Positions 1 through 10,026 of a stretch of DNA of 10,101 nucleotides are shown one piece after another. Position 1 is the first letter of the stretch. Every line of letters starts with the position of its first letter. Source of the stretch: a virus; the UHGV virus genome UHGV-1546666; one strand, given 5' to 3'. The notes under the pieces are model-generated. The model was not told the origin of the DNA and searched no databases. It worked only from the letters and a program-made list of their open reading frames with translations. Made by a program: the position numbers and the translations under genes.

Positions 1-199
1 TCTTCAGTTTATCTTTCTGTTTCTGCTCCTCTCGTCGTCGTTTCTTCTCTGCTGCTTTTTCCGCTTTTTCGCGTTCTTTACTTCGTCGTTCGAGTGCTAA
101 TTGAGTTCCGTGTTCCGGGCAGCACCACCACTGATTTGAGAATGCCGGGTGAAACCATTCTTTGCATATTTTGCATTTCCTTCGCGCTGGTTTAGCCAT
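1..199 (-). CDS. ninG: NinG/Rap-family protein, N-terminal 66 codons only (gene continues past the window start)
   Basis: Minus-strand translation from ATG at 199..197 reads [66 protein letters not shown], which matches my recollection of the lambda NinG N-terminus (Cys-rich motif followed by a Lys/Glu-rich stretch). The ATG overlaps the stop of the upstream gene (TAATG). Not in the ORF track because it is truncated by the window edge. Confidence 0.7.
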
Positions 200-927
200 T
201 AAGCAGCCTCCCCTGTTACTTTCAGCATTCCGTTATCGAGCAGCTTTCTGGTCAGCCACTGTTGACCACGCCCGGTGATTTTTGTGGTGAACGATATCTG
301 TATTCCGTGATTTGTGTTGACCGCTGTTTCTTTCACTGTGAAATAGCCGCGCTCCATATATTCCTGCATTGGCACATTGCGCCGGGCACCTGAAGTAATA
401 AGGATTTTGTGATCGCGCATCCACGCAAACAGTTTGTTTGGACCAATTCCAACAACCTTTGCATAGTTTCCAATCAAAATTCCGCTGGCCTCGCCAACGC
501 GATCGGCAAACTCAACTTTAGGTGCTGCGAGAGCAAGCTGTTTCTCCAGTTCAGCCTTCTGGTCTTCAAGGTCGGCCGCAAGGCGCAATGCCTCAGAAAA
601 GGTTTGTGGTATTTTCGCGGTTGCCCCTTCGAGTTCTCGCCAACGGTCAACAAGACGAGCGGTGAATTCCGGCGACAACTGAGCGACGACAATAATGCTG
701 TCGCGCTTACCTTTTTCGCCTTCGAAGACGTAATGCTCGTACTGAACATTGAACCCTAAGTTATTGATTCTTTCGGAAACCTCAATTTGAGGAAGCCGGA
801 TAACTCCACTTTTAACCAGCGTTTCGATGGTTCGTTTCACATTGTCATGACGCTTACCTGTAAGCTCAGCGATTTCAATGCTAGTCATTTTGATGACGTT
901 GCTATTTATCAGCTCGTTCATTGTCAT
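199..927 (-). CDS. Rha-family phage regulatory protein with antirepressor-like (KilAC/ANT-type) C-terminal region, 242 aa
   Basis: ORF-track protein. The N-terminal segment [24 protein letters not shown] is the typical Rha signature and the C-terminal half resembles antirepressor C-terminal domains (from memory). RBS GAGAGGA lies upstream of the ATG at 927. Confidence 0.75.
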
Positions 928-1072: not shown

Positions 1073-2086
1073 TTACTTGTCTGAATCATCCAGTTCGTCT
1101 GTTTTCACATCCTCAAACCTTGGATGCAGGCGATTCATTTTTGCAATAAAATCTGAATAGTCGTTAGATAGCTTCATAATCGTAACGGTTGATGACAGAT
1201 GCTCTCTTAATTTTTGATATCCAATATTTGGCGTCAGCCCCTGAAACAACTTTGTACCTTTTGAGGCCTTTACGTTCTGCTTTTTAAGCTCCTCAAGGAT
1301 GTTTGGTGCCAATCTCTTGTAGACGATATCATTTGTCAAAACGCCAAAATACTGAGGCCGGAAGCGGGGATTTTCCGGCGGGTATTCTAAGCCCCTTAAC
1401 CTGAAAAGCTCTTCATAATAATCAGCAGGAAATGTTGTAATATAAGGTTGAATTTCCTTTGCGACAAAGGCCTCGAGTATTTTGGCGAGCGCATCTTTTT
1501 CTCTATCTCGCTGGTACCCCGTCGCTTCATCAACAAGCGCTATTATTCCGACTTTAGCTAATGAGCGCACCAGAATTTCAGCTTTCTTGGCTGTCTCTAA
1601 CTGGTTTGGCCTGGTGATAGCGCCTGCCTCTCTTGCCTTTAAATAAACATCGCAGACAAGAGGTATTATGGATGCGTCATAACCTTCCTGGACGGAGCCA
1701 GTAATCGTCTTGTATTTGACCTTATTGATCACACCCATAACATCTTGATTTATATATTTTTTAAGGTTTGCAGCATCCATAAAAGCGGGCATATTGATCA
1801 CCCCCTCTTCTTGAGGTGCTCTACCCCCTCTTTGTGGTCGGCCAAATGCTTTAAAAACAGAAGCTTGTGATATGATACGCCGTCCATTTTCGAGAACCGC
1901 GACATCTAATTCCGCATCACCGATCTTTAACTTTCCCTCATTCGCAGATACGGGCAATAAAGCTTTTTCTTTTTTTGCGGCAACAGCCTTTCTTGAGGAT
2001 TCTTTTCTTTGCTCTGCTGTCATTTTTGCCGCGCGTGCCTTACCGCCTTTGGCCTTCCCACTAACATCATCATTTTTCATGAGCAT
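1073..2086 (-). CDS. Hypothetical accessory (moron-like) protein, about 337 aa, with a Lys/Arg/Ala-rich basic N-terminal tail and a globular C-terminal domain; possibly a P63C-type phage domain
   Basis: ORF-track 355-aa frame, with the start moved to the in-frame ATG at 2086..2084 (MLMKNDD...) because the track's first codon lies upstream of the -10 element of its own promoter; a second ATG at 2080 is also possible. The N-terminus is GKAKGGKARAAKMTAEQRKESSRKAVAAKKEK. The P63C family call is a weak recollection only. Confidence 0.6.
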   Translation of the reverse strand: MLMKNDDVSGKAKGGKARAAKMTAEQRKESSRKAVAAKKEKALLPVSANEGKLKIGDAELDVAVLENGRRIISQASVFKAFGRPQRGGRAPQEEGVINMPAFMDAANLKKYINQDVMGVINKVKYKTITGSVQEGYDASIIPLVCDVYLKAREAGAITRPNQLETAKKAEILVRSLAKVGIIALVDEATGYQRDREKDALAKILEAFVAKEIQPYITTFPADYYEELFRLRGLEYPPENPRFRPQYFGVLTNDIVYKRLAPNILEELKKQNVKASKGTKLFQGLTPNIGYQKLREHLSSTVTIMKLSNDYSDFIAKMNRLHPRFEDVKTDELDDSDK

Positions 2087-2103
2087 ATCTCGTGTTGTGA
2101 TTG

Positions 2104-2140
2104 ATAAGTCAATTATACACATGCACGTTGTAACGTGCAA
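2104..2140 (-). promoter_or_regulatory. Sigma70-type promoter for the 1073..2086 gene, with overlapping palindromic operator
   Basis: On the minus strand: -35 TTGCAC (2140..2135), 17-nt spacer, consensus -10 TATAAT (2117..2112). The inverted repeat TGCACGTT-gt-AACGTGCA (2122..2139) overlaps the -35 and spacer, and a third TGCACGT half-site lies at 2151..2157. Confidence 0.5.
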
Positions 2141-2205: not shown

Positions 2206-2307
2206 TCATGGTATTCTGCTCAAAACTAAATTTCTGGAGCGTTTCGTTGGAAGGTATTTGCAGTTTTCGCAGATGATGTCGGTGAAACTTCGTCGCTGTC
2301 GCCTCAT
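2206..2307 (-). pseudogene. ninE: ninE remnant: 26 NinE-like codons followed by unrelated sequence and an early stop (33 aa total)
   Basis: Minus-strand translation from ATG 2307..2305 reads [26 protein letters not shown] then LVLSRIP*. The first 26 residues match my recollection of lambda NinE ([29 protein letters not shown]..., 60 aa). The ATG overlaps the stop of the upstream ORF as ATGA. The ORF is below the 60-aa track threshold. Confidence 0.5.
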
Positions 2308-2906
2308 GCCGCCCTGTCTCCCCATCTTGCTTTCATTGTTTCATTTGCAAATCGCCAGAATCTTCCTTTGTGATATGAGCTTTCGCCATTACAGCAACGA
2401 CTAATTGACGAACTATCAAATCCTTCTCTGACAGCATCCATAGCTGCTTCATAATAAACCTCCTCCCCAGTTTTCATGTCAGTAGAAATAACAGCTTTAC
2501 TGGCAGGATGATCACCACTAAATTTACCTAGCGATATAGGTATTCTTCCATTTTGTTTATATCCGTGCTTTGAGTTTTCAGAATGTGATACCCATTCAAG
2601 GTTTTCAGCCCTATTGTCATCTCTTTGCCCATTTTTGTGATTAACTACCAAGCCATCACAGAACCCTGTACAGAATGCTTTCGCAACTATCCTGTGGGCG
2701 CTGTATTTCTTACCGTATACCTTTATTTGAAGATATCCTGTCGACTTGCACTTGAATGGTTTTACGCTAGTGCCATTAATTATTTTCTTATATGGCCTCT
2801 GTCTGGTTGATGTTACTGTAATTTCCCTCGTAATAGACCTGAAATTTCCTTTATTGCTAACCTGATAAAATGGAATTCCTTCGATATCTACCCAAACCTC
2901 AATCAT
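2304..2906 (-). CDS. HNH homing endonuclease (NUMOD4 motif plus HNH_3-type nuclease motif), 200 aa
   Basis: [21 protein letters not shown] is a NUMOD4-like motif. [11 protein letters not shown]...[25 protein letters not shown] is an HNH_3-type motif (His-Arg, HxNG, DNR, ENLEW). A GGAGG RBS sits 4-5 nt before the ATG, which overlaps the ninB stop. The region is visibly AT-richer than the lambda-core genes. Confidence 0.85.
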
Positions 2907-3315
2907 AATTCCTCCATTCGCTAAGATTAATTGAGTTCATGGCACAATATGCTTCTATGTAGTCCATTATTTCGGATATTTTTTTTACAGATAGAGTCGC
3001 CGTACTCTCTCTGATGTTTATTAGCTCACCTTCTAACCCTGATATAATCTCAGGGTGCTGGTTGGTTGCAATCTGCCAACCAGAAACGAATAACCCCTTC
3101 CAAAACTCAATATTTCTTGCTTTTCCATGATATGTAGCCTTCTTACTTATTTCAGATAGCATCGCGTGAAGGCGTGCATTTTGCCGAATGCTGCGGTTGC
3201 GTTCCTGAATGGTTACTACGATTGGTTTGGTTGGGTCTGGAAGAATTTGCTGGATAGCTTGAATGGCGTTCTGCTGATGGATGGGGCTTCTTAGTTCAAA
3301 TGTTAGTTTCCTCAT
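2899..3315 (-). CDS. ninB: NinB (Orf-family recombination mediator), about 138 aa
   Basis: Start placed at the internal Met of the 165-aa track ORF (MRKLTFELRSPIHQQNAIQAIQQILPDPTKPIVVTIQERNRS...), which aligns with the lambda NinB N-terminus MKKLTFEIRSPAHQQNAIHAVQQILPDPTKPIVVTIQERNRS. The C-terminal portion is divergent and ends ...SEWRNYD. Confidence 0.8.
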   Translation of the reverse strand: MRKLTFELRSPIHQQNAIQAIQQILPDPTKPIVVTIQERNRSIRQNARLHAMLSEISKKATYHGKARNIEFWKGLFVSGWQIATNQHPEIISGLEGELINIRESTATLSVKKISEIMDYIEAYCAMNSINLSEWRNYD

Positions 3316-3478
3316 CACCCTTAATCCTCTCGAAGTTCTTCTCGAAGTTTTTGGTGTCGAACACTGACCACCGACCATTATGAATGGCGTATGCACAGGT
3401 CTTGTTTTCGTCCTGATAAACTACCCTTACCTTGCGATAAAACCGTGGCTTAATCTCTCTGAATATTTGCTCGCTCAT
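3296..3478 (-). CDS. Hypothetical small phage protein, about 60 aa
   Basis: Track ORF 3296..3484 trimmed to the ATG at 3478, which has a strong RBS (GAAGGAG, 5-nt spacer). It is Lys/Arg/Glu-rich and of unknown family. Its 3' end overlaps the ninB start by about 20 nt in a different frame. Confidence 0.5.
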   Translation of the reverse strand: MSEQIFREIKPRFYRKVRVVYQDENKTCAYAIHNGRWSVFDTKNFEKNFERIKGDEETNI

Positions 3479-4147: not shown

Positions 4148-4774
4148 TTAGAGGTCTGCCGCCCATGACAGTTGTTTTACTGGTTCAGGTATCGTCTCAC
4201 CACGGTTAATTCTCGCAGTCATATGGACAAGCTCATCTGCGGCCTTACGGCGTAATTCCGCATCAGTAAGCGCATTGGCCCGCATGTTCTGATACAGGTT
4301 GGTAACCAGCCAGTAGTGCGCGTTTGATTTCCACGGATAAGACTCTGCATCCGGATACAGGCCTCGCTTCCGGCAATACTCGTAAACCATATCAACCAGC
4401 TCGCTGGCGTTTGGCAGCCCGGCGGTAACGGATGCTTCTTCCCGGCACCAGGCGACAAACTGCCCGGGTGATGGCAGGAATGGTCGATTCTGCCGACGGG
4501 CTACGCGCATTCCAGCGTTAACCTGTTCCATTGTGGTGATCCCGTTTTCCCGGAAAGCCAGAACCCACTGGCGGCGGATTTCGTTCAGTTCATTCTGGTC
4601 ACGGTTAGCCAGGCTCGCCGGGAAAGTTGCCAGTAACTGGCTGAACACACCGTTGATGATCTGCGCTACCTGCTGTACCTGCGGCTTTTCGTCGTACTGT
4701 TCCGGCATGTTGTTGGCGATCCGACGCATCTGCTCACGGTCAAAGTTAACCATCTGTGCGGCGATGTTTTTCAT
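4148..4774 (-). CDS. P: Replication protein P (DnaB helicase loader), C-terminally frameshifted: 208 aa ending ...KQLSWAADL
   Basis: Residues 1 to about 202 match lambda P (MKNIAAQMVNFDREQMRRIANNMPEQYDEKPQVQQVAQIINGVF...). Downstream, a shifted frame (4170..4081) encodes MGGRPLNRAQALAKIAEIKAKFGLKGASI*, which is the conserved P C-terminus and ends overlapping the ren start. Confidence 0.85.
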   Translation of the reverse strand: MKNIAAQMVNFDREQMRRIANNMPEQYDEKPQVQQVAQIINGVFSQLLATFPASLANRDQNELNEIRRQWVLAFRENGITTMEQVNAGMRVARRQNRPFLPSPGQFVAWCREEASVTAGLPNASELVDMVYEYCRKRGLYPDAESYPWKSNAHYWLVTNLYQNMRANALTDAELRRKAADELVHMTARINRGETIPEPVKQLSWAADL

Positions 4775-9819: not shown

Positions 9820-9885
9820 ATATGCATACCAATAACGCTTCACTAGAGGCGTTTTCGTTATGTGTAAATAAATAAGGAGCACACC

Positions 9886-10026
9886 ATGCAATATGCCATT
9901 GCAGGGTGGCCTGTTGCTGGCTGCCCTTCCGAATCTTTACTTGAACGAATCACCCGTAAATTACGTGACGGATGGAAACGCCTTATCGACATACTTAATC
10001 AGCCAGGAGTTCCCAAAAATGGATAA
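9886..10026 (+). CDS. cIII: CIII (FtsH inhibitor), 46 aa, apparently truncated by a premature stop
   Basis: Manual translation gives MQYAIAGWPVAGCPSESLLERITRKLRDGWKRLIDILNQPGVPKNG*, which matches lambda CIII (54 aa from memory). RBS TAAGGAG. After the TAA the same frame still encodes NTYGYPD*, the expected CIII tail. Below the track threshold. Confidence 0.75.
   Translation: MQYAIAGWPVAGCPSESLLERITRKLRDGWKRLIDILNQPGVPKNG

Follow-up and report, generated by a model that had tools for sequence, protein, structure and literature searches.

Introduction

The HNH homing endonuclease I-HmuI of Bacillus phage SPO1 nicks a single DNA strand, and its gene lies within a group I intron. In its structure (PDB 1U3E), the HNH motif is followed by a C-terminal helix-turn-helix DNA-binding domain. 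The free-standing homing endonucleases of T4-like phages (the seg and mob genes; mobE) are encoded by genes that lie between or within conserved genes; these spread when breaks are repaired, and the flanking sequence is co-converted (PMC2790892, PMC2988022). Homing endonuclease genes mark the boundaries of genetic exchange (PMC10448857). In the mobile-ORF gene hybrids of fungal mitochondria (atp6 of Allomyces macrogynus; atp6, atp9, cox2, and nad3 of Glomus), a foreign C-terminal portion joined in frame to the host gene is followed by an endonuclease ORF and by the displaced remnant of the native C-terminal part (PMC3630166). The NinB/Orf-HNH fusions (DUF968) of Gram-positive phages combine a NinB-type recombination mediator with an HNH nuclease (PMC2034487, PMC4118853). 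In lambdoid prophages, HNH boxes were drawn beside orf by Curtis et al. (2014), without analysis, and no description of a fusion to a ninB tail, or of a chimeric ninB, was found in the searchable literature.

Here, we describe a ninB locus in a 10,101-nt stretch of virus genome UHGV-1546666 (the window, by which the whole stretch is meant). The predicted endonuclease encoded there resembles I-HmuI in the order of its HNH motif and C-terminal helix-turn-helix domain, but its gene is free-standing, and the protein has an N-terminal NUMOD4 region and a nine-residue appendage derived from ninB. The T4-like endonucleases are the closest mechanistic analogue; they belong, however, to lytic T4-like phages and have other target genes, whereas the window gene is found at ninB in lambdoid and Stx phages and has captured a tail in frame. 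The closest anatomical analogue is provided by the fungal hybrids, all three parts of which have counterparts in the window: a foreign ("type 2") ninB segment (3189..2899), an HNH core (2906..2334), and a lambda-type remnant (2333..2304). Unlike the window locus, the fungal hybrids are mitochondrial and are not HNH genes in a phage operon, and their native remnant is long and usually untranslated, while that in the window comprises nine codons translated as the C-terminus of the endonuclease. The mobility of the Allomyces hybrid was demonstrated biochemically, whereas the window locus is a phage or prophage HNH gene known from sequence. By analogy, the locus would work like a mobile-ORF gene hybrid without belonging to this class of elements. 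The NinB/Orf-HNH fusions, finally, are single polypeptides with a small zinc-finger HNH, in contrast to the two overlapping genes and full I-HmuI-like enzyme of the window.

Results

All genes in the examined part of the window lie on the minus strand. The product of ninB (3315..2899) matches the NinB profile over its full length (PF05772, E 3.6e-40; residues 4-131 on a 131-position profile), also matches phrog_72 (E 3.5e-42), and ends ...NLSEWRNYD*, with the stop codon at 2901..2899. The following ORF (2906..2304, 200 aa, intact; ATG at 2906..2904) overlaps ninB by 8 nt, and the last ninB codons, EWRNYD*, overlap both its start codon and a GGAGG sequence at 2915..2911. This arrangement of a ninB ending in ...SEWRNYD*, an overlap, a ribosome-binding site, and a NUMOD4/HNH_3 ORF had been described in a first-pass annotation, and all of its elements were confirmed in the sequence and by Pfam. 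At the other end of the ORF, its stop codon (2306..2304) overlaps the ATG (2307..2305) of the translationally coupled ninE' (2206..2307), forming an ATGA junction (2307..2304). The ninE gene of the window is truncated, a feature absent from the first-pass annotation: 26 NinE codons are kept, homology ends at 2230, and the sequence then diverges and stops.

Codons 1-191 of the ORF (2334..2906) specify the endonuclease core. Pfam searches revealed a NUMOD4 region (residues 3-63, E 1.5e-13) and an HNH_3 domain (PF13392, residues 69-112, E 8.2e-12), and a weak match to the I-HmuI NUMOD-like region, below the Pfam cutoff, covers residues 145-181. DNA-binding modules are therefore predicted on both sides of the nuclease domain, NUMOD4 on the N-terminal side and an HTH/NUMOD-like module on the C-terminal side. 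The HNH catalytic motif is present and intact (invariant columns H90, D97, N98, N102, and N111), and PHROG matches of the core are to HNH endonuclease families. Residues 55-186 match the sequence of I-HmuI (1U3E) with an E of 4.7e-14, and an AlphaFold2 model of the protein (mean pLDDT 89.3), searched against the PDB with Foldseek, returned 1U3E as the sole significant fold match (E 4.2e-13). No Rfam intron family was detected in the window, and the ORF overlaps its flanking ORFs directly; the endonuclease is thus of the free-standing kind. Judged by its sequence, ORF 2906..2304 is an intact free-standing gene for an I-HmuI-like HNH homing-type endonuclease with presumed nuclease activity. Existing database annotation calls the gene an HNH or NUMOD4 endonuclease, and the assignment to the homing class, which the first-pass annotation had also made, agrees with the Pfam and 1U3E matches.

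The origin of the last codons of the endonuclease gene was examined by comparison with lambda ninB (J02459, 40644-41084, translated), whose C-terminal end had been correctly given in the first-pass annotation. The last 31 nt of the ORF are identical to the lambda ninB 3' end at 29 positions. An empty-site allele is found in a prophage of E. coli AVS0362 (L097), where a lambda-type ninB directly abuts ninE. Homology to this allele starts exactly at window position 2334, the third base of codon M191, and 104 of 105 nt are identical from there to 2230. Codons 192-200 (KARWGDRAA) together with the stop codon (2304..2333) are therefore a lambda-type ninB 3' remnant, and the match of the encoded tail to NinB reaches a z of 9.1 against shuffled tails. 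The closest relatives of the endonuclease (63-77% identity; P0122, P0123, and P0127-P0143) are 193-194 aa long and end ...WRFxxxxxAA*, without KARWGDR; the absence is seen at the DNA level in Salmonella phage SEN22, where the gene reads ...GATGAGAGGATGGCCGCATGA and is 21 nt shorter. I-HmuI ends four residues past the equivalent FRY motif. In the AlphaFold2 model, pLDDT falls to 58 over residues 191-200. A tail native to the endonuclease family was considered and is ruled out, since neither the closest relatives nor I-HmuI have these residues. We conclude that, on the strength of these alignments, KARWGDRAA and the ATGA junction derive from the 3' end of a lambda-type ninB that is read in frame as the endonuclease C-terminus, as the first-pass annotation had proposed. 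For annotation, this means that the last nine residues of the "HNH endonuclease" belong to ninB and that the adjoining ninB is a chimera.

The chimeric nature of ninB was revealed by an alignment with P27, APC_JM3.2, SEN22, and lambda. The window gene is near-identical to lambda ninB over the first ca. 129 nt and unrelated to it directly after ...CGCAGC; homology to both lambda and the empty-site allele runs from window position 3318 to 3190 and stops abruptly. Codons 1-42 (3190..3315) are therefore the lambda-type left flank of a replaced block, and the N-terminus they encode resembles that of lambda-type NinB variants such as P0092 and P0102. Codons 43-138 and the stop codon (2899..3189) encode a NinB body still recognized by PF05772. 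These codons have no nucleotide relation to lambda, are 99% identical to P27 and APC_JM3.2 and 77% identical to SEN22, and fall in a large separate NinB clade (type 2). Since other members of this clade have N-termini of their own (P0008-P0037), the window NinB is a chimera. The interior between the two breakpoints measures 855 nt in the window (3189..2335), versus ca. 285 nt of lambda-type ninB in the empty-site allele, and consists of type-2 ninB codons 43-138 and endonuclease codons 1-191. Nothing above shuffled expectation was found in this block in a search for internal promoters and terminators. The sequence comparisons thus show that a foreign ninB segment and an endonuclease gene have taken the place of lambda-type ninB codons 43-137; this is not a simple insertion.

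An insertion just after the EW codons of this ninB, which the first-pass annotation had suggested, is contradicted by both the four-phage alignment and the empty-site comparison. The boundaries it had proposed to align were partly upheld: the right junction is ninB-derived from 2334, but the left boundary lies at 3190 and not after EW. In the protein alignment, ...LSEWRNYD stands opposite lambda ...KWSDEARL rather than ...LEW. The supposed new tail, RNYD, is seen elsewhere as well: ninB/HNH pairs of the SEN22 type end in SEWRNY[DE] and lack a lambda tail. The W-R-x-Y-D/E residues are set by the Shine-Dalgarno sequence and start codon of the endonuclease gene, read in the ninB frame (TGGAGGAATTATGATTGA), an arrangement shared with relatives in Yersinia (L042) and Mixta (L005). 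Neither an endonuclease-less type-2 ninB ending ...SEWRNYD nor an uninterrupted ninB with its native end intact (the 12-residue ending expected from an insertion) was found among the phage records, E. coli genomes, and protein homologs. The right-hand ninB homology is only 31 nt long. Since SEN22-like phages combine the chimeric ninB with an endonuclease gene free of the lambda tail, the junctions on the two sides may stem from separate events.

The type-2 segment and the endonuclease gene were found together in every carrier, that is, in 65 of 65 phage records and 77 of 77 E. coli genomes. The filled allele is present in 77 of 5426 complete E. coli genomes, and ca. 2100 genomes match the ninB/ninE flanks. 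Presence and absence of the block are polymorphic, with sharp breakpoints between a filled (L098) and the empty (L097) allele, and intact empty alleles exist in E. coli. With its lambda tail, the block (at least 98% identity) lies in front of ninE, ninC, dam, or ninD, and in every case the endonuclease stop codon marks where homology ends; phages without the endonuclease, too, have each of the four genes behind a lambda-type ninB. The backbones that carry the block are those of Stx phages (P27-like phages and many Stx2a phages), P22-like phages, and other prophages. A search for the same endonuclease at other loci, which had been suggested in the first-pass annotation, thus placed it upstream of the four genes named and, in addition, behind a DUF1367 gene (L101, L103, and L111). 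In one of the latter (L101, 1824-2493), the DUF1367 gene is preceded by 16 codons left over from the N-terminus of a type-2 ninB (MKQTYLLRNEAIRNNA), which suggests that ninB itself was replaced there. When the type-2 NinB alignment was used to scan GTDB genomes, only seven loci resulted; further loci came from IMG/VR scans. Among more distant type-2 ninB genes, many are without an endonuclease and have other endings (L044-L091).

Between the window and SEN22, the endonuclease gene has a pS of 0.79 and a pN of 0.13, and the type-2 part of ninB behaves likewise. The two values are given instead of a dN/dS ratio because synonymous sites are saturated. Saturation combined with a low pN indicates that the ninB-HNH pair is old and under purifying selection; it is not the recent arrival that had been supposed. 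Together with the I-HmuI fold of the model, these values make the enzyme look functional. Disrupted copies exist elsewhere: IS1 interrupts the gene in a Mixta prophage (L005, 3389-4804) and an IS5-family element in an IMG/VR contig (L018, 3383-5215), and frameshifted protein variants were also recovered (P0124-P0126). In two other IMG/VR contigs (L038, 2893-3419; L039, 2944-3416), a frameshift (...LSVKKYPK*) breaks the chimeric ninB in two, and the endonuclease gene is intact.

Across the family, endonuclease C-termini are hypervariable past a conserved ...HKGxxWRF motif. With a threshold of z of at least 5 against shuffled tails, the tails of ca. 20 of 115 HNH homolog clusters match NinB C-termini, with differing cut points (z values are 21 for P0218, 15 for P0221, and 9.5 for P0134). 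Such tails read ...WRF|GTEHGVKWADEAKAA in P0221, ...AHAFGTQRGVEWSPTSLGRAA in P0191, ...SDASRLEIEWATRWGKS in P0134, and ...AFCDAHGVQLTETIKGGFHDPRARAA in P0218. NinB-derived tails were checked on DNA at five loci (L092, L094, L096, L100, and L102). At the first of these, the upstream NinB ends early (...AWMTENVEVAA*), and the endonuclease tail holds a diverged, overlapping copy (AFGTQRGVEWS...), which indicates that two different alleles are involved. The L094 locus has a divergent NinB-like gene, complete with a tail of its own, in front of an endonuclease gene that ends in a type-2 tail. A type-1-like NinB breaks off after ...VRW in both L100 and L102 and continues into a new end, ...TQKDNWGGRY*; the L102 junction reads ...HQVRW|TQKDNWGGRY*, and the endonuclease tail there is ...CEPKGQMPEQWEQAA. 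Simple insertions thus seem to exist in other lineages, L102 being an example. A NinB-like ending is also seen outside the family: behind a type-2 ninB in L041 (3380-3961), an unrelated HNH_3+AP2 endonuclease ends ...AIEWASRFGDKQRAAA, a tail similar to that of type-1 NinB. No out-of-frame ninB remnants were seen downstream of short-tailed endonucleases.

A separate observation concerns dam. In L030 (3979-4539 and 4536-5066), a second HNH_3 endonuclease gene lies between the NUMOD4-HNH gene and dam. It starts with the first nine codons of dam (MTIKSNTPA), and dam has a new N-terminus (MIKHKSETPKEV...). This is the mirror image of ninB-tail capture, at the 5' end of a gene.

Several other features of the window were recorded. 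The truncated ninE is followed by a P63C-domain gene (1073-2140, minus strand) and then by a Rha/KilAC antirepressor gene (199-927, minus strand). Just upstream of the P63C gene, TGCACGT/ACGTGCA occurs three times as overlapping palindromes (2122-2128, 2133-2139, and 2151-2157). E. coli Z1322HEC0005 (L099) has the same joint between ninE' and the P63C gene, preceded by a different ninB; ninE' is annotated there as a pseudogene. Replication gene P (4148-4774, minus strand) has a 4-nt deletion (CTTC) near 4171 relative to phage P27; the resulting frameshift leaves 208 aa instead of 233 and a 67-nt gap before ren, and the prophage may be replication-defective. An Rfam match to the lambda cIII thermoregulator element (RF01804, 88.5 bits) at 9873-9931 on the plus strand fits a lambda-like early-left region.

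Discussion

The explanation that we favour, and whose chances we put a little above even, is that the window gene is one of a family of homing-type endonuclease genes that reside at the 3' ends of phage ninB/orf genes and move together with the adjacent ninB. We infer homing, as well as nuclease activity and a target site in ninB, from the arrangement and relationships of the genes. During co-infection, or when a prophage meets a phage, the enzyme would nick or cut ninB alleles that have no endonuclease, and repair would copy the endonuclease gene together with the adjacent donor ninB (co-conversion). The two homology arms would be the conserved 5' patch of ninB and, on the far side, either the ninB tail or nin genes downstream of it. 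Poor homology would make repair end illegitimately inside the ninB 3' end and leave remnants of various lengths. In the window, the first 42 codons of the resident gene now head the chimeric ninB, and its last nine codons and stop codon are read as the C-terminus of the endonuclease. Such an in-frame scrap keeps the ATGA stop-start overlap with whichever gene comes next.

Homing is supported by the sharp breakpoints against the empty-site allele, the complete linkage of the type-2 segment to the endonuclease gene, the portability of the block among backbones, and the non-native tail, as well as by the recurrence of NinB tails, the I-HmuI fold, the low pN, and the free-standing nature of the gene. 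Counted against it are the lack of a lambda tail in SEN22, the location behind DUF1367 genes, and the right-hand homology of 31 nt. The frequency of the filled allele, set against the ca. 2100 genomes with matching flanks, is also weak for efficient drive.

The same rarity is compatible with the endonuclease being an uninvolved passenger, its junctions created by homeologous or illegitimate lambdoid recombination and in-frame joints kept for translational coupling. The nin genes ninB, ninC, and dam share short ...RAA*/ATGA ends, and the window contains other mosaic joints without an endonuclease, such as that between ninE' and the P63C gene. Moreover, lambda Red recombines diverged sequences efficiently, and Red-type homeologous recombination alone is able to build such mosaics (PMC2327257, PMC3945230). 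Passive exchange does not explain, however, why NinB tails with many cut points recur in one endonuclease family and again in a second, unrelated HNH_3 endonuclease, or why the type-2 segment and the endonuclease gene are never apart in 142 records; we regard it as unlikely, but worth serious attention. That linkage, the 8-nt overlap, and the Shine-Dalgarno sequence inside ninB could instead reflect a functional partnership, the nuclease being a domesticated cofactor of type-2 NinB/Orf in recombination and the lambda tail an incidental scar. An old, tightly linked pair under strong purifying selection across saturated synonymous divergence also fits a domesticated NinB partner, and fusions of NinB/Orf to HNH nucleases are known in Gram-positive phages (PMC2034487, PMC4118853). 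Yet the NUMOD4, HNH, and HTH architecture and the I-HmuI fold are typical of site-specific homing enzymes, many type-2 NinB genes lack such a neighbour, type-1 NinB and DUF1367 genes can also stand in front of the endonuclease gene, and some copies of it are broken by IS elements or frameshifts. We therefore consider such a partnership improbable. Both of these explanations nevertheless stay in play, given how rarely the filled allele occurs and how strongly purifying selection acts on the pair.

Least credible of all is a single recent insertion after EW of this ninB, which would have supplied the RNYD tail and displaced the last nine codons. It is true that the tail is ninB-derived, that the ninB end was shaped by the translation start signals of the endonuclease, and that simple insertions appear in other lineages, such as L102. 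However, codons 43-138 of the upstream ninB are not lambda-type, SEWRNY[DE] is found without the lambda tail in SEN22-like pairs, an uninterrupted version of this NinB is absent among the homologs, and the ninB-HNH pair is old. We give this account very little credence.

A broader form of the homing explanation is that ninB/orf is a dedicated hot-spot, at which cassettes with I-HmuI-like and occasionally HNH_3+AP2 endonucleases carry a presumably cleavage-immune ninB, overwrite the resident gene, and leave an in-frame scrap. We put it forward tentatively and think it somewhat more likely to be wrong than right. If it is true, such elements drive the diversity of type 1 versus type 2 NinB in lambdoid phages, including Shiga-toxin phages, and a phage counterpart of the mobile-ORF gene hybrids of fungal mitochondria has been found for the first time. 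The biology would extend the well-known behaviour of homing endonucleases and involves no new principle. If the endonuclease targets rival ninB genes, encounters between lambdoid phages and prophages, among them Shiga-toxin phages, would lead to biased inheritance of the nin region, and it would be clear why sharply different NinB alleles are joined at a fixed point. The in-frame scraps of ninB would then be a fossil record of past invasions, readable from sequence alone.
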